DNA from: a virus
Taxonomy: Duplodnaviria > Heunggongvirae > Uroviricota > Caudoviricetes
Virus record (IMG/VR): IMGVR_UViG_3300028648_000132
Strand: one strand, 5' to 3'
Length of the DNA: 64,000 nucleotides
The notes under the pieces are model-generated. The model made no database searches, was not told the DNA's origin, and saw only the letters and a program-made list of their open reading frames with translations. The position numbers were made by a program, and so were the translations under genes. This document shows, piece by piece, positions 11,801 to 62,956 of the stretch; the stretch's first letter is position 1, and each line of letters opens with the position of its first letter.

Positions 11801-13577
11801 TGTCGGCCACAAGTTTCAGCGGCGGCTCCAGCGCCTGCATGGCGAAACCTAGGGCGCGCCAACCTGCTACAGCGGTTGCACCGGCGCCCATTGCGATGGC
11901 CTTGGATGCGGCGGCTAGCGAGGGCGTCAGGTCCTTGGCGGCGCTGGAGATGTCGCGCCAGCCCTGCCGGATCTGGTCGACCGCGGTACCGCTGCCGCCA
12001 CCGCCGGTCCTGAGGTCACGCATCGCGTCGGCGGCCTTGTCCAGCCAGCCAGTCATCCCCCTACCGGCTGACTGCAAAGTCGGCGAAACCAGGTCGTACA
12101 GAGCCAGCTTCGCGCTCTCGGCGGTGTTCTTGAGTCCCTCGACAACCCCCGGTAGGCCCTGCATCTGCGCGGCGGCCATCTCGCTGGCACCACCGGCGCG
12201 GCCGACAGCCCGGAACATCTCGTCGAACATCTGGACGCCGCCACCGGCTGCGACCATGGCCGCGCGCATCGCGTCAGAGCCAAACAAGATGTTGGTGTCG
12301 GCCTGGAACTGCTCTTCGGTCATCCTCTTTGACGCTGCGGCAACCTGTTCCAGCATGGAGCGGTAGCCGACGAACTTGCCGGTGGTGTCGTACAGGGTCA
12401 ACCCCAGGCTTTCGATAGCGCCCTGTGCGGGGTTGCCCTGGTCAGTGATGGCCTGGAGGGAGGTCTTGATGAGGGTGCCTGCATCGGAGCCGCGGATACC
12501 GGCGTTGGCCAGAAGTCCGAGGGCAGTAATCGTGTCCTGGGCGGTCAGCCCGAAGCCGTGAGCGACGGCACCGGCCTGCTGAAGACCGAGGGCGAAGTCG
12601 CCGATGTCGCCGGTGGATGCGTTGGCGACGTTGGCCAACATGTCAGCCATATTGGCCGCCTGGTTGGCGTCCATTCCGAAGGCGTGAAGGGCATTGGCCT
12701 GAATCTTGGCTGCCTCTGCTGCGGATACCTGTGCGGCGGTTGCTAATTGCAGGGTGCCGCGAGCCGCGGACATGGACTGGTCGACGTCGAAGCCGCCCTT
12801 GGCGAGTTCGGTCATGGCCTGGGCTGCGTCGGAGGCCGACACACCGGCGAGCTGAGTGTCAGCGCCCAGCTCGCGGGCGCGCCGAGAAACGGCCGCCATC
12901 TGCTCAGGTAGTGCGCGGGTGACGCCCTGCATGGTGTTGAGCGCCGAATCGAACGAAAGGCCCGTGTCGACAACGCTTTTGACGGCAGCGATGAATCCGC
13001 CGCCTGCGGCCAGTGCGGCGCCGGTGTTGAGGGCGCGCTGGAAGCCCTGCGCGAAGCGGGCGCCGGAGTCCGACCCGTACGCCTCGGCCCGCATGATCAG
13101 CCCCGCACCGAACGGCATCTTGACCTGACTGGACGCCTGCGACTGCGCCTTCTGAGCACGCTCCAAGTCCCGGGTGACGCGGGTCAGGTTCTGTGTCGAC
13201 ACCTCCTGTGCGCGCCGCGCCCGCGCCACACCCTCCTCAGCAGTAGCCCGCTGAGTGGCTGTGGCCCTGCCCTTCTCGTTGAGTTCGTTGAGTCGTGTCT
13301 GGGCGACGGTGAGGCGTCCCGTGGCGTCCGCGTCTGCCTTCTTCGCGGTCGCCAGTGCCTTCTCGGCACGTTCGACCTGGCGGAGTGCGTCGACCGCCGA
13401 CTTGCCGCTGGCGGCAAGGTTGCGGGCCATGTCGGCACCCATGGTGCGGGTGGCACGGCCGAAGCGGCGTTCCGCGTCGCGGCCGATGCGTTCGACGCCC
13501 GCGGCAAGGCCCGACGCCTCGGGCATCAGGGGCACCCATACTTGCGCCAGTTCAACGGCGGCGACTGCTGGACTCAA
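8871..13577 (-). CDS. tail tape measure protein (1568 aa)
   Basis: Very long protein with an Ala/Gln-rich coiled-coil N-terminus and internal Gly-rich segments. TTG start at 13577 with an AAAGGAG RBS, overlapping the stop of the chaperone T frame. Contains an embedded Cys-His peptidase-like motif (GPSGTDCSGA...GGGHMAV). Confidence 0.9.
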   Translation of the reverse strand: MSPAVAAVELAQVWVPLMPEASGLAAGVERIGRDAERRFGRATRTMGADMARNLAASGKSAVDALRQVERAEKALATAKKADADATGRLTVAQTRLNELNEKGRATATQRATAEEGVARARRAQEVSTQNLTRVTRDLERAQKAQSQASSQVKMPFGAGLIMRAEAYGSDSGARFAQGFQRALNTGAALAAGGGFIAAVKSVVDTGLSFDSALNTMQGVTRALPEQMAAVSRRARELGADTQLAGVSASDAAQAMTELAKGGFDVDQSMSAARGTLQLATAAQVSAAEAAKIQANALHAFGMDANQAANMADMLANVANASTGDIGDFALGLQQAGAVAHGFGLTAQDTITALGLLANAGIRGSDAGTLIKTSLQAITDQGNPAQGAIESLGLTLYDTTGKFVGYRSMLEQVAAASKRMTEEQFQADTNILFGSDAMRAAMVAAGGGVQMFDEMFRAVGRAGGASEMAAAQMQGLPGVVEGLKNTAESAKLALYDLVSPTLQSAGRGMTGWLDKAADAMRDLRTGGGGSGTAVDQIRQGWRDISSAAKDLTPSLAAASKAIAMGAGATAVAGWRALGFAMQALEPPLKLVADILGNNQWLTTGLVAVLTALYLKSKLAGPALQVAAKATQAWGTAFAGWRTPATQAQQAMENTTRTAGESTRAQRGWATQMKDSYNQAADRSLFFSRTAGTAGAAMTGMKLAGSGVLSMLGGPWGVAAAGVGLAMGMIADAHQKAAQKAQEQKQAEEELRATLDQDSGRVTDETRRKAAERFGKEDPYKTTDIGRAKGLGIDPNMLVDAATGTGNAQAYDIIKKLALDKGVREGLDKVSITGSGGTKLDWNVIQQQYQAMGVSSDELYNALIKEGNGWDTVNGKIAKYRAANPGDQNLVGLQQIIDAMPDANESLITLTQNVNEQRRETDKGAQSLRDMAQAQYGLWKATDVGVARFKDLGAAIVSVPNNKSIDLKVDPAKYDETKKKLEELGYTVTQLPGGIVKVTAATDEAQKRFNDLVYKVNNTTATLPIDLKLANSLGAILPPGLQGVFNAATLAGQVPGRASGGHVDGRGVISGQGTGTSDSILARVMGGAAGQFIKVSNKESINTAQSTRDNMPLINAMNRGWVPSANFLRIMTGIPGYAGGGPISIEDAANDMAGAPYVRGGHGPSGTDCSGAASVLVNAAVGQPPYGERMATANAGDWLAARGAVMGRGPAGTLRVGWKNGGPGGGHMAVTLPDGRNAESGGKVGKFTVGAGAAGADDPQFTNQAYIPVNAMYPDGWPSGAAGGGYSMYGSGGGGGGAGGYGSGGGGGGASPAQRRQLRDAEQKVQDKQFDVEQAQRKLDELQSKKNVKPSEQAAAEERLTRAQREHKDALDDLSTKQEQVNDADTRGRGGQNGQQPGSGPDGKSFAKDMMSGAMEMFGLDGSIFSNPMDWGIFKLFTGGANAIGGMLKNAFGGPQQQQQNPMGTQAMRNNRHGLGGAPGPGDGGLGDFNFGDGGMGVVGDALQAALPQVGDFLPNSQNPGNNNYTTNQNSNNNSATGAAFYGPVTINDPGGLVKPPDRMNTRMTGLPKP

Positions 13578-43688: not shown

Positions 43689-43885
43689 CCGCCAATCGCC
43701 CTGAATGCCTCGTGCAGGTGCCAGGACGCCGACTTGAGCAGGTCCTGCGCTTCCTTGTCTCCGATGGCAACAGTGGCCCGCTTCATGTCGATCTCAGCGA
43801 GGGTGATCTGCCGGAGCATGTTGTGCCGCGCGTACTCGTGGAAGATCTCTGGCTGATGGGTCGTCGTGTGCTCACTGGCGTTCAT
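43673..43885 (-). CDS. hypothetical protein
   Basis: 70-aa ORF. Confidence 0.4.
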   Translation of the reverse strand: MNASEHTTTHQPEIFHEYARHNMLRQITLAEIDMKRATVAIGDKEAQDLLKSASWHLHEAFRAIGGWQWP

Positions 43886-44826
43886 CCGGCCGCCTTCTGG
43901 TCGTCGGTGGGTCGTGGGACGAGCTGTAGGGGTTTACGGCACGTGCAGGGCAGGACGCCGGAACCGTCGTCGGCCTCGATCCAGCCGCCGCCCTGGCAGC
44001 GGGTGCACGCCTCGCGGCGGGCCAGTGCTTCGGCTCGGTCTGCCTTCTGGCGGTCCGCGGCGTCGCTGGCGGCGGCCTCGGATGCCAGCCGGGCTGTCAT
44101 GCAGTCGCGGCAGTTTGGGGGATGTGGGTCGTTGATGTGCTTGGGGCAGCGGGTGGGCGCCTCCCCAACGTAACCACCTACCCAAGGTGACCCCTTCCCC
44201 CTCCCCTTCCCCTTCCCCCTAGTGATCCCGATGCCATCGGAATGGCATTCCAATGGCACATCGGATTGCGGTGGGTTTTCGATGCCATCGGGGTCGGTTT
44301 CAGATGGCATCGAAATGCCATCGAGGTCACTGTCTGTGGGCGTTGGGTCGTCGTCCGGCCTTGGGTCTGTCGGGGTGCCGTCTGGACCCGGGCCAGATGG
44401 GTCGATCTGGTTGGCGACGTTCACCGCATCGGTACGACGGGTGCGCCGCAACTCGGCCGCCAGCACCACACGTAGGACCGGGGATTCGACGGCCTGGGCG
44501 CATTTCAGGGCGTTCGCGAATAGGTACTTGTGTTTGAGGACGCCGTCGTTGCGTATGTACGAGCGGACCAACAGTTCCTCGGTGTCCTCGTCGTAGGCCA
44601 CATAGAGGTGCTCGGCGAGTTCGTTTGTAGCGCGGCGTACATCGGCGACGCTGGTGTGGTCGCAGCCCTTCGCCCACTTGCTTAGTTGCAGCGGCAGGAC
44701 ACCGGCATTGTTCACATTCGGCTGCGACAGCAGGAGCATATACATGCGCTGCGCCTCCACGGATCGCTGCTGAAAGTCTTTGTCCCGCCATATGATTGTC
44801 AGAATCCGACCATGGTCGCGCGGCAC
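43882..44826 (-). CDS. putative replication initiator/organiser protein carrying internal iterons
   Basis: GTG at 44826 with an AAGGAGA RBS. N-terminal wHTH-like domain (ILTIIWRDKDFQQRSVEAQRMYMLLL). Low-complexity linker encoded by a repeat cluster. C-terminal Cys-rich domain. Confidence 0.45.
   Translation of the reverse strand: MPRDHGRILTIIWRDKDFQQRSVEAQRMYMLLLSQPNVNNAGVLPLQLSKWAKGCDHTSVADVRRATNELAEHLYVAYDEDTEELLVRSYIRNDGVLKHKYLFANALKCAQAVESPVLRVVLAAELRRTRRTDAVNVANQIDPSGPGPDGTPTDPRPDDDPTPTDSDLDGISMPSETDPDGIENPPQSDVPLECHSDGIGITRGKGKGRGKGSPWVGGYVGEAPTRCPKHINDPHPPNCRDCMTARLASEAAASDAADRQKADRAEALARREACTRCQGGGWIEADDGSGVLPCTCRKPLQLVPRPTDDQKAAG
44191..44324. repeat. iteron-like repeat cluster (about six copies of RATGSCATY on an ~11-bp register) plus a (CCCCTT)n hexanucleotide repeat, lying within the initiator-like coding sequence
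   Basis: GATGCCATC at 44230 and 44281, GATGGCATC at 44303, and AATGCCATC / AATGGCATT / AATGGCACA at 44314 / 44241 / 44252. Spacings are 11, 11, 29, 22 and 11 bp. CCCCTT appears five times at 44191-44220. Confidence 0.5.
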
Positions 44827-44828
44827 AG

Positions 44829-45212
44829 CTATGTCTCCTTCTGGTTGGCTAGTTCTAGTAGGACGTCCGCGTGGCAGGAGGCGTCGAGTCGACACCAGCA
44901 GCAGAGGTCGTGGCCGCGGAGAAGTGGCACCAGATCCTCCACGCGTTTCATGGAGCCAAGTAGCCAGTGGCGGTATAGGCGCACTGCGTAGTTACTCGCC
45001 CACTCGTGTGTCCCGGTGCCCTGAAAGAACTTTCCGGGTCCTGCGACGGTCCAGACACGTACACGGCGGGCACCCAGTAGGTCCGGCTCTGTCCCGGCGC
45101 ACACGACCTTGAACGGGTTGCCCCATCGCGATGGCCGGGCAACTACTATCGCGCCTTCCGGTTTCCGCCACCCTGCGCTACGCCGCAACTGGATACGTTG
45201 GGGCATGCTCAC
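44829..45212 (-). CDS. DUF4326-like phage protein
   Basis: 127 aa with GWRKPEGAIVVARPSRWGNPF, a signature common in small phage proteins of this family. Confidence 0.5.
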   Translation of the reverse strand: MSMPQRIQLRRSAGWRKPEGAIVVARPSRWGNPFKVVCAGTEPDLLGARRVRVWTVAGPGKFFQGTGTHEWASNYAVRLYRHWLLGSMKRVEDLVPLLRGHDLCCWCRLDASCHADVLLELANQKET

Positions 45213-55986: not shown

Positions 55987-56333
55987 GCGTTGCGACCTTT
56001 CGGTAGGTAGTTGTCGTGCAGGTAGATGTCGTGCAGAGGCAGCGCGATGGGGGTGTCGTAGACGTCCTGGCCGTGGGTGAGGGTGAGTCCCACTGCTTCG
56101 GCGTCCGCCGGGTTGGTGGTGACCCAGTGGTGGCAGTCGCGGCACAGGTGGACGATGTTGGCCGGATGCCATCGGCCGCCCTGTGATCGGTTGCGGCGGT
56201 GGTGCATATCGGTGCCGTGTTCCTTGCCGCACCACTCGCACCAGCCCATTGACCGGCCGCCGACGTGGTCCCGGGTTAGGGCCTCTGTCCAGTCGGTGAT
56301 GTACGGCTCTGACCAGATGTCGTCGGCGGTCAC
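55983..56333 (-). CDS. HNH endonuclease
   Basis: GTG at 56333 overlaps the upstream stop (GTGA). Motifs CEWCGKEHGTDMHHRRNRSQGGRWHPANIVHLCRDCHHW. Confidence 0.55.
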   Translation of the reverse strand: MTADDIWSEPYITDWTEALTRDHVGGRSMGWCEWCGKEHGTDMHHRRNRSQGGRWHPANIVHLCRDCHHWVTTNPADAEAVGLTLTHGQDVYDTPIALPLHDIYLHDNYLPKGRNA

Positions 56334-62342: not shown

Positions 62343-62645
62343 ATGACCGTTGCATACGAAACCGGGACTATCCCCCCAATGCGTCTGCGATACCGCCTAC
62401 AGATCGCACGGGAAGAAGCCCAACTAGATCAAAGGCAACTGGCCGACATGATGGGCGTCGGCCGGTCGGTAATTGGCAATTGCGAAAAGGGTCGGACCGT
62501 CCCTAAAAAGATCGTCCTCAACGCCTGGGCATTGGCCTGTGGAGTGCCAGTAAGTTGGCTAGCCGAGGGCGAAGGTGAGCAGCCGCCGGAGGGCGACGGG
62601 CCGTCTGTGGTGCGCCCGAAGGGATTCGAACCCCTAACCTTCTGA
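62343..62645 (+). CDS. immunity repressor (XRE-family HTH), prophage form with its C-terminus encoded across attR inside host tRNA-Arg
   Basis: 100 aa with the HTH LDQRQLADMMGVGRSVIGNCEKGRTV. Transcribed divergently from the cro-like gene. The last ~12 codons (VVRPKGFEPLTF*) are read from the tRNA-Arg gene. Confidence 0.6.
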   Translation: MTVAYETGTIPPMRLRYRLQIAREEAQLDQRQLADMMGVGRSVIGNCEKGRTVPKKIVLNAWALACGVPVSWLAEGEGEQPPEGDGPSVVRPKGFEPLTF

Positions 62646-62683
62646 TCCGTAGTCAGATGCTCTATCCGTTGAGCTACGGGCGC
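62608..62683 (-). tRNA. tRNA-Arg (anticodon ACG), CCA encoded; integration site (attR overlaps its 3' end)
   Basis: Cloverleaf: GCGCCCG-UA-GCUC-AACGGAUA-GAGC-A-UCUGA-CUACGGA-UCAGA-AGGUU-AGGGG-UUCGAAU-CCCUU-CGGGCGC-A-CCA. Confidence 0.9.
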
Positions 62684-62730: not shown

Positions 62731-62819
62731 GCGGAGGCGAGAGGATTTGAACCTCCGGTCCCCCGTAAAGGGGACAACTCATTAGCAGTGAGTCCCATTC
62801 GGCCGCTCTGGCACGCCTC
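62731..62819 (-). tRNA. tRNA-Ser (anticodon GCU), type II with a long variable arm
   Basis: GGAGGCG acceptor, D-arm GCCAGAGCGGCCGAAUGGGAC, anticodon loop CUGCUAA, and a long variable arm before the T-arm GGAGG-UUCAAAU-CCUCU. Coordinates are approximate to +/-1 nt. Confidence 0.85.
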
Positions 62820-62956
62820 CTGAACTTCCTGAGCGGGACTCCGGACCCATAAAAATGGATCCCGAACCGCCGAGGGCACAGAGTACAGGGCCGCGCGCCC
62901 CAAAGGCAAAGCCGTTGGTCGTCATCGGGCCCCACGTGCCCCGATAGTCTGGTCAC

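Follow-up and report, generated by a model that had tools for sequence, protein, structure and literature searches.

What does a phage gene for a DNA-binding protein gain from an array of short, regularly spaced repeats inside its own coding sequence? The question is raised by the gene at 43882-44826 of IMG/VR virus record IMGVR_UViG_3300028648_000132, a stretch of 64,000 nucleotides (the window, below) that represents a high-GC (~65%) actinobacterial prophage; between 43000 and 46000 its DNA is 93% identical to the Mycobacterium abscessus prophage prophiGD43A-5 and 92% identical to prophiT37-1. A first-pass annotation of this DNA had described an initiator-like protein of 314 amino acids (aa), a cluster of 9-mer repeats and a CCCCTT tract in the part of the gene that encodes a linker between two domains, and had likened the arrangement to that of phage lambda. 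In our opinion, the repeats are probably the cognate iterons of the protein's own N-terminal domain (N-domain) and, together with the adjoining G-run tract (44161-44323 as a whole), would form the replication origin of an M. abscessus prophage. This conclusion comes from a layout that matches two established systems, pSK41 Rep and lambda O, and its components are considered in turn.

The degenerate 9-mer RATGSCATY has six exact matches in the window: five of them fall within 93 bp (44230-44322, with starts at 44230, 44241, 44281, 44303 and 44314) and an isolated one lies at 56165. Shuffled versions of the window contain 1.29 matches on average, and none of 100 reaches six. The cluster had been reported to hold six copies; five are indeed exact, while the sixth (44252-44260, AATGGCACA) is degenerate and deviates from the consensus at its final two positions. 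The start-to-start spacings of 11, 11, 29, 22 and 11 bp are exactly those reported. The suggestion that all copies occupy the same face of the helix is correct within each of two blocks and does not extend across them: 29 is not a multiple of 11, and the array consists of two 11-bp registers, 44229-44261 and 44269-44323, with an offset of 7 bp. As 11-mers, the units approximate the palindrome CGATG-S-CATCG. At the position homologous to the decayed slot listed in Table 1, an intact copy, AAATGGCATCG, is present in a relative with 73% identity (L094; numbers of this kind are our own designations of loci). Autocorrelation of the window linker peaks at lags 11, 22 and 33 (0.47, 0.44 and 0.40). 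Multiple copies above chance at the spacing of the helical repeat, as in iteron arrays generally, are thus found here, with one 7-bp break of register. A scan for CGATGSCATCG with two mismatches allowed returned 74 hits where 30 were expected, and we rejected these as additional sites. They are scattered GC-rich codon-like strings, and the dinucleotide shuffles that served as background do not keep codon bias, so that the excess was not counted.

Table 1. Coordinates of the initiator gene and of the DNA elements within it (positions in the window; copies are numbered in gene order)
Feature	Position	Strand	Sequence	Remarks
Initiator gene	43882-44826	-		314 aa; GTG start 44824-44826, stop included; open reading frame read from the sequence
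Shine-Dalgarno-like element	44834-44839	-	AGGAGA	7 nt 5' of the GTG, within the 3' end of the preceding gene; from the sequence
N-terminal winged-helix domain, coding part (aa 1-145)	44392-44826	-		presumed iteron reader
Disordered linker, coding part (aa 146-222)	44161-44391	-		contains every origin-like DNA element; pLDDT <55 over ~150-222
Cys-rich C-domain, coding part (aa 223-314)	43882-44160	-		pLDDT ~85-90
Iteron copy 1	44313-44323		AAATGCCATCG (+ strand)	encodes D-G-I; least conserved copy in close relatives
Iteron copy 2	44302-44312		AGATGGCATCG	encodes S-M-P-S, in a different frame; core invariant in 10 clade members
Iteron copy 3	44280-44290		CGATGCCATCG	11-bp palindrome save for the centre; central G/C flipped in L019 and L021
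Decayed iteron slot	44269-44279		CGGTGGGTTTT	in 11-bp register with copies 1-3
Degenerate iteron copy 4	44251-44261		CAATGGCACAT	encodes V-P-L; invariant in 10/10 clade members
Iteron copy 5	44240-44250		GAATGGCATTC	encodes E-C-H-S, in the third frame
Iteron copy 6	44229-44239		CGATGCCATCG	encodes D-G-I
G-run tract	44191-44220	-	AGGGGGAAGGGGAAGGGGAGGGGGAAGGGG (coding strand)	30 purines, five runs of 4-5 G; peptide RGKGKGRGKG
Post-tract element	44161-44190	-	TCACCTTGGGTAGGTGGTTACGTTGGGGAG (coding strand)

Since the repeats are also codons, it has to be asked whether they are kept for the peptide or for the DNA. The six copies lie in both orientations and are read in three frames, giving D-G-I three times and S-M-P-S, V-P-L and E-C-H-S once each. 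When synonymous codons are permuted within the gene, 0.75 ATGSCAT copies remain on average and five are reached in none of 2000 permutations; Asp is written GAT in 4 of 6 linker codons against 2 of 25 elsewhere in the gene. Among ten distinct genes of the window clade, variable positions number 2/36 in the cores against 13/58 in the spacers (p=0.04), and variable third codon positions 5/33 in the iteron stretch against 41/145 and 34/92 in the two folded domains. Further away, in L094-L098 (51-73% protein identity), ATGSCAT copies are kept though the linker peptide is mostly different. The centre of the palindrome changes freely between G and C (copy 2 in L094, copy 3 in L019 and L021), as one would expect of a palindromic site whose central base is not read. 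The repeats are evidently constrained as DNA and not as peptide, and the linker peptide is probably a passive tether whose sequence is set by the DNA elements.

The first-pass annotation had named the absence or poor conservation of the repeats in homologous initiator genes as an outcome that would refute it. What we found is the reverse, namely phased arrays at the same position throughout the family. We gathered 86 loci from genomes and IMG/VR, five by exact protein look-up and seven from GenBank phages, and reduced them to 36 lineage representatives. Almost all of these carry 3-11 copies of a short (7-9-bp) motif of their own at nt ~420-600 of the gene, immediately 3' of the N-domain-coding part; 11 or 12 nt is the usual spacing, and the copies occur in both orientations, being direct in most lineages. 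The layout is the same, with different motifs, between lineages whose N-domains are as little as 27-50% identical. The commonest motif is GAACCCTTC, for example in the Gordonia phages GAL1, Portcullis and ViaConlectus; GAACCCTG is found in the prophiGD13-2 group, and AACCGTT, AACCCAT, ATCCCGA, ACCCTATC and GATACCC in other lineages. ATGSCAT is carried by the window clade, L094-L098, two Nocardia prophages (L012 and L026) and the distant metagenomic loci L077 and L081. At least seven motif classes are clearly recurrent. The motifs differ by one or two substitutions (compare GAACCCTTC, GAACCCATC and GATGCCATC), and all approximate a 9-bp dyad GA-N5-TC. Averaged over 31 representatives, base autocorrelation in the linker-coding part is 0.365 and 0.377 at lags 11 and 12, against 0.25 and 0.32 in the N-domain-coding part, while the codon signal at lag 3 is 0.22 compared with 0.32 in the domains.

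If each protein reads the repeats of its own gene, then motif and N-domain should change together. We aligned N-domains labelled by motif class; the sample is 28 genes, and the statistics ignore phylogeny. Mutual information with motif class peaks in the column of His99 (1.36 bits, the next column having 0.99). Position 99 is His in 8 of 10 ATGSCAT genes, Gln in 13 of 15 AACCCTT genes and Tyr in all three AACCGTT genes, and Tyr101 versus Asn follows the same split, so that the local signatures read L-K-H-K-Y-L-F, x-K-Q-P-N-x-L and x-R-Y-P-N-I-L for the three classes in that order. The covariation is not simply phylogeny, because the Nocardia prophages L012 and L026 carry His/Tyr together with ATGSCAT against their overall relatedness: their proteins share 68-73% identity with the AACCCTT-type L009 and L010, compared with 58-62% for the window protein. 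The AACCCTT-type protein nearest to the window protein (L025, 68%) has Gln/Asn. We regard this covariation as the strongest available, still indirect, indication that the N-domain reads the repeats of its own gene.

What is known of the protein agrees with such a role. The gene and its 314-aa product are as first described, and the label of initiator-like protein is borne out by a match to PHROG 3171 'replication initiation protein' (E 1.4e-68; residues 1-290 on profile positions 1-304 of 331), where the function label is an annotation. Pfam gave no significant family for the window protein (E<=1) or for 70 homologues (E<=0.1), and an NCBIfam search gave no model matched by the window protein or its homologues. 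A sequence-profile search of the PDB returned nothing relevant, and Foldseek against the PDB returned generic winged-helix matches only (E >= 0.16), the RepA_N fold not being singled out. The AlphaFold2 model was built from a 70-sequence alignment, a single-sequence run (mean predicted local distance difference test, pLDDT, of 43) having been discarded. It predicts an N-domain of winged-helix topology at residues 10-145 (pLDDT >90), disorder at residues ~150-222 (pLDDT <55) and an ordered C-terminal domain (C-domain) at 223-300 made of a long helix and a Cys-rich hairpin. This pattern of order and disorder upholds the placement of the repeats in a linker between the N-domain and a Cys-rich C-domain: the iterons correspond to aa 168-200 (gene nt 504-598) and the G tract to aa 203-212, both inside the stretch of low pLDDT. 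The C-domain has Cys/His motifs that are potential zinc ligands (C227/H230/C239/C242, and CxxCxGxG...CxC at 274-296) and a weak Anti-TRAP/DnaJ-type zinc-finger match at residues 272-294.

The closest proteins, at 93-94% identity, are gp36 of prophiGD43A-5 and gp34 of prophiT37-1, annotated just as 'helix-turn-helix DNA binding protein' (L001 6001-6945 and L002 6001-6945); going by sequence, this annotation could be upgraded to replication initiator. Relatives found by tblastn are present in 344 phage records (Gordonia 150, Mycobacterium 145, Arthrobacter 41, and others), and many of the actinobacteriophage homologues are already annotated as 'RepA-like replication initiator' or 'replication initiation protein'. 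With the N-domain as query, 2,755 cluster representatives (50% identity clusters) are found at E<=1e-3 and 1,963 at E<=1e-10; the domain is almost always N-terminal, in proteins of 250-420 aa. The family is represented both among integrating prophages and in the genomes of phages from many clusters. In PLSDB an N-domain homologue is found in just three records, all of them large actinobacterial 'plasmids' (NZ_CP079864.1, 49 kb, Mycobacterium sp. SMC-2; NZ_CP027794.1, 92 kb, Prescottella equi; NZ_CP036456.1, 90 kb, Streptomonospora litoralis), which may represent phage-plasmids or extrachromosomal prophages relying on this module for replication; a natural minimal replicon carrying the initiator gene was not found among these plasmid records.

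The second component of the putative origin is the tract beside the array. It had been described as (CCCCTT)5. On the + strand, 44191-44220 reads CCCCTT CCCCCT CCCCTT CCCCTT CCCCCT, which is indeed a tract of 30 consecutive pyrimidines but an imperfect repeat. On the coding strand, five G-runs of 4-5 nt, separated by loops of 1-2 nt, agree with the canonical intramolecular G-quadruplex motif (as a predicted potential), which asks for at least four runs of >=3 G on one strand and loops of 1-7 nt, and ViennaRNA with G-quadruplex terms, using RNA parameters, places a four-layer G-quadruplex in the tract at ~-44 kcal/mol. Such a block is a regular companion of the iterons: in 22 of the 36 representatives the G-richest 30-mer of the gene lies directly downstream of them, usually with 4-6 runs of 3-5 G. 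The peptides encoded by the tracts are chemically inconsistent (RGKGKGRGKG, GRGDGVGEG, GVGEGVGEGE, GEGEGEGEG, TGTGTG), while the G-runs are kept; in the prophiGD13-2 and L033 groups the tract is even frame-shifted (RERVRVGV, GEREGVREG), with the G-runs still present. Codon choice points the same way, GGG accounting for 66 of 100 Gly codons in the tracts versus 76 of 395 elsewhere (p 1e-18) and AGG for 15 of 26 Arg codons versus 38 of 680 (p 8e-12). Within the window clade, none of 20 third positions in the tract and the next 30 nt is variable (0/10 in the tract alone), against 75 of 237 in the domains (p=0.001). The earlier view of the tract as a slippage-prone repeat that stays in frame is right in so far as the units, always in frame, number five in most relatives above 90% identity, six in L014 and L021 and 4-5 in L094-L098. 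However, this is not the whole of it, and by these comparisons the tract is a conserved DNA-level element and not merely a slippage-prone repeat. Four runs are the minimum for an intramolecular G-quadruplex, and in the ATGSCAT group no member with fewer than four G-runs was seen.

Three further observations belong to this part of the gene. In some lineages the tract keeps its position with the strand flipped, being C-rich on the coding strand in L085 (nt 567-593, TACCCCC x4), L078 (nt 633-660, CCCCTG/CCCCTA) and L091 (nt 585-615, CAACCCG x4). An octamer, ATCACTAG at 44221-44228, links the last iteron with the G tract; it is kept across ATGSCAT-type lineages (L094-L098, L026) despite a varying flanking peptide, with the form ATCACTAC in L097 and L026, and most of these lineages have within it the tetranucleotide CTAG, usually a rarity in bacterial DNA. 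Finally, an alternating purine-pyrimidine (CG/CA)n run, which is Z-DNA-prone and encodes an ARAHARARTRE-like peptide, lies downstream of the G tract in several lineages (L009 nt ~655-700; L026 ~660-700; L007, ViaConlectus, ~607-640; L006, Portcullis, ~634-660; L059 ~595-615) and is absent from the window gene.

Directly after the tract, the stretch 44161-44190 varies at 1 of 30 positions, and at none of its 10 third positions, among 10 clade members. Strings resembling it (GTAGGTGGTTACGT, TCACCTTGGGG and ACTCAAGTTGGGGAG) follow the tract in distant lineages with other iterons. This may be a third origin element or, alternatively, a conserved peptide (WVGGYVGE).

An origin inside the initiator gene is a known design, found in lambda and in the RepA_N plasmids. 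In lambda O the iterons lie in the linker-coding part, between a DNA-binding N-domain and a C-domain that recruits the helicase loader, and ori-lambda consists of four ~19-bp iterons with internal dyad symmetry followed by an AT-rich region. To judge by sequence, our system would share with lambda the intragenic linker iterons, their internal dyads and the reliance on the host replisome. It differs in having 6-8 sites of 9-11 bp at 11-bp spacing and a G-run/polypurine tract, an AT-rich region not having been detected; moreover, Pfam Phage_rep_O and its relatives are not matched, and a P-like loader gene was not recognised beside the initiator gene. The comparison with lambda made in the first-pass annotation therefore stands as regards iterons in the linker of an initiator gene, but a nearer precedent exists. 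In Rep of pSK41 (319 aa) the N-domain binds four Rep boxes located centrally within rep, the central domain is a dispensable linker encoded by ori, and the C-domain binds DnaG (PMC5703833). Across RepA_N (pSK41 and pSK1 Rep, pAD1 RepA; Firmicutes theta plasmids) the repeats are central in rep, in the linker-coding part, and the window gene appears to have the same placement. The differences are that PF06970 is matched neither by the window protein (E<=1) nor by the 70 homologues (E<=0.1), that RepA_N belongs to plasmids of Firmicutes whereas here we deal with phages and prophages of high-GC Actinobacteria (only the three PLSDB records have a homologue), and that the window C-domain is Cys-rich with possible zinc-binding motifs. 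We consider the RepA_N arrangement, rather than lambda O, the closest precedent. The system would work like these origins within a gene, with no demonstrable membership of either family; it is distinguished by short dyads at 11-bp spacing, a conserved G-run block and the fact that an AT-rich element was not detected.

Another comparison suggests itself because of a name. The RepA proteins of cluster A phages (Miko, Rachaly, Jeeves; pMSC262/pMF1 type) are also actinobacteriophage initiators and have the same SEA-PHAGES function name. Wetzel et al. suggested for them an origin just upstream of or within repA and found no repeated motifs (PMC7157519). Judged by its description, with the helix-turn-helix at residues 95-132 and kinship to mycobacterial plasmid RepA, this appears to be another family, and it serves extrachromosomal prophage maintenance whereas the window holds an integrated-type prophage. 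Hence we did not take the work on the Miko-type RepA as experimental support: the family appears different and repeats were not reported.

How would such an origin work? The linker-coding DNA carries six near-palindromic sites of 9-11 bp (ancestrally about 7-8) in two 11-bp registers, and the gene product, as modelled, has an ordered DNA-binding N-domain joined by a disordered linker to a C-domain that is ordered and Cys-rich. N-domains may bind contiguous sites and oligomerise along the DNA, with specificity contributed by residues ~97-103, notably His99 and Tyr101, as the covariation suggests; contiguous 11-bp sites would mean initiator molecules packed side by side in two short blocks. If pSK41 Rep and lambda O are a guide, the nucleoprotein complex would distort the adjoining DNA and the C-domain would recruit the host helicase and/or primase. 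Recruitment of the host replisome fits the annotation of prophiGD43A-5, in whose first 45 kb, the early region included, no helicase, loader, primase or polymerase is annotated; it is on this ground that we suppose a reliance on the host. Around the window gene, PHROG scans of the ten neighbouring genes likewise recognised no helicase, loader, primase or polymerase.

The least certain step is the opening of the strands. Because no AT-rich unwinding element is detectable, the G-run/polypurine tract is a candidate for the site of first opening or of single-strand binding, either through non-B DNA (G-quadruplex, triplex) or through a transcription-coupled R-loop, the latter being conceivable because, in the initiator gene, the non-template strand is the G-rich one. 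In ColE1, RNA II forms a persistent RNA:DNA hybrid at the replication start. At mitochondrial CSB II, non-template G-runs stabilise an RNA:DNA hybrid/G-quadruplex at the start of replication (PMC3488243, PMC4176368). For the G tract these systems offer purely an analogy, that of G-blocks on the non-template strand near a replication start, at which transcription yields a stable hybrid or G-quadruplex that serves to prime or to open the origin, and they differ in that our tract would act from within a protein-coding gene, beside iterons, and lies on the other strand in a few lineages.

Several points weigh against the origin proposed here. A nearest-neighbour stability scan of the gene did not find an AT-rich or low-stability element beside the array: the least stable 20- and 40-bp windows are in the N-domain-coding part, and the iteron region is moderately unstable. 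GC skew, computed at 2-kb resolution, stays positive throughout and does not switch at the site, which is uninformative because the genome is transcribed largely in one direction. The 7-bp break means that the array does not present one phased face. The sample behind the covariation is small, and the distant ATGSCAT lineages L077 and L081 have Asn, not His, at position 99. At least three lineages have a tract rich in C on the coding strand, and this argues against a strictly transcription-oriented mechanism of opening. Our literature searches found no publication that describes an origin for this initiator family. Last, an initiator that binds within its own gene could equally do so for the sake of autoregulation.

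This last point is the main rival. The repeats would be true sites for the encoded protein but would serve autoregulation or copy control, by a transcription roadblock or by handcuffing, with the origin elsewhere. DNA-level constraint and covariation support binding in either case, the lack of an AT-rich unwinding element beside the array counts for this reading, and plasmid iterons are known to have control roles too (PMC5703833). On the other hand, in both systems with this layout, pSK41/RepA_N (PMC5703833) and lambda O (PMC7157519), the intragenic array is the origin; the 64-kb window has no second array, just the single 9-mer at 56165; and a simple operator would have no need of the conserved G tract and post-tract motif that accompany the array. 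In our opinion, pure autoregulation is therefore unlikely, though it deserves more attention than the other alternatives.

One may also imagine that the selected function is in the mRNA, where hairpins and an RNA G-quadruplex would pause ribosomes or tune translation or stability, for example by setting the ratio of N-domain-only to full-length protein. Indeed, the coding-sense RNA of 44185-44335 folds better than its shuffles (z -2.6), the four-layer G-quadruplex predicted by ViennaRNA in the tract was computed for RNA, and constraint on synonymous sites fits selection on RNA as well as on DNA. We considered a conserved RNA structure as the cause of the z-score and rejected it, attributing the folding to the inverted copies. 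In most lineages the copies are direct, not inverted, so conserved hairpins are not maintained, and the G/C flips at core centres occur with no compensation elsewhere. Neither the 11-12-nt spacing nor the covariation with a residue of a DNA-binding domain has a rationale at the RNA level, and the mRNA of some lineages has a C-rich tract instead. We find this explanation highly improbable.

Even less credit can be given to the idea that the repeats are a neutral by-product, collected by slippage duplication in a weakly constrained linker whose DNA has no function; the linker is indeed disordered, the number of tract units changes among close relatives and some iteron slots have decayed, but the 11-nt unit is not a multiple of 3 and its copies occupy three frames, the cores are steadier than the spacers and third positions steadier than those of the folded domains, the choice of rare codons is systematic, and arrays laid out alike but built from different motifs are found in lineages that share as little as 27-50% identity in the N-domain, the type of motif following an N-domain residue. 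Just as implausible is a cis site for another transaction, a ParB-like partition centromere or a packaging (pac) site: such sites are also short repeat arrays, and prophiGD43A-5 encodes two ParB-like nuclease-domain proteins, but the array is always within this gene and co-varies with the gene's own N-domain, in the relative the gene maps to the early region, with ~23 kb separating it from the terminase gene, and the family occurs in integrating prophages and in phages of many clusters.

Returning to an origin within the gene, a bolder version of it is tempting, namely that the G-run block in the initiator coding sequence replaces the AT-rich unwinding element in high-GC actinobacteriophages and that firing needs non-B DNA. 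We consider this version rather doubtful. If true, a G-quadruplex or R-loop would be nucleated beside an 11-bp-phased initiator filament, and initiator expression and origin opening would be mechanically coupled. As a corollary, origin specificity across ~2,000 clusters would be largely set by one or two residues (99/101), which would amount to a simple recognition code for designing compatible mycobacterial replicons.

The more modest proposal has consequences enough. It concerns a large family (~2,000 clusters at 50% identity and E<=1e-10, and 344 sequenced phages) with no Pfam model. If the intragenic arrays are origins, then the origins of hundreds of actinobacteriophages and M. abscessus prophages could be recognised directly in their sequences, which would aid the interpretation of induction and coverage data as well as therapeutic phage engineering. 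The diversified pairs of initiator and iteron, with at least seven motif classes and a candidate specificity residue, could supply compatible mycobacterial shuttle vectors, for which the work of Wetzel et al. on cluster A phages (PMC7157519) is a precedent. The family would also be a tractable case of origin opening in ~65% GC DNA without an AT-rich element, with the G-run tract as the obvious candidate. The specificity covariation is directly testable, and the result bears both on the biology of M. abscessus prophages and on mycobacterial vector design.

As to the surroundings, the initiator gene belongs to a leftward operon whose genes are tightly packed. In the first 45 kb of prophiGD43A-5, which extend from the early region through terminase and portal, RecE/RecT, a DnaQ-like exonuclease, a Ro-like RNA-binding protein and a BrnT toxin/antitoxin pair are encoded in addition to the ParB-like proteins mentioned above. 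A perfect 11-nt inverted repeat, TGTGCCGCGCG / CGCGCGGCACA, flanks the initiator gene in the window (43822-43832 and 44817-44827), one arm lying over the GTG start and the other within the 70-aa gene that follows; chance alone would give about 0.14 such pairs in the same 1.1-kb stretch. Finally, the window contains three tRNA genes, Ser-GGA at 11909-12007 (+) and Arg-ACG and Ser-GCT at 62608-62683 and 62731-62820 (-). The two near 62.6-62.8 kb could belong to the phage itself, or they could indicate that the end of the prophage or its attachment site is close by.

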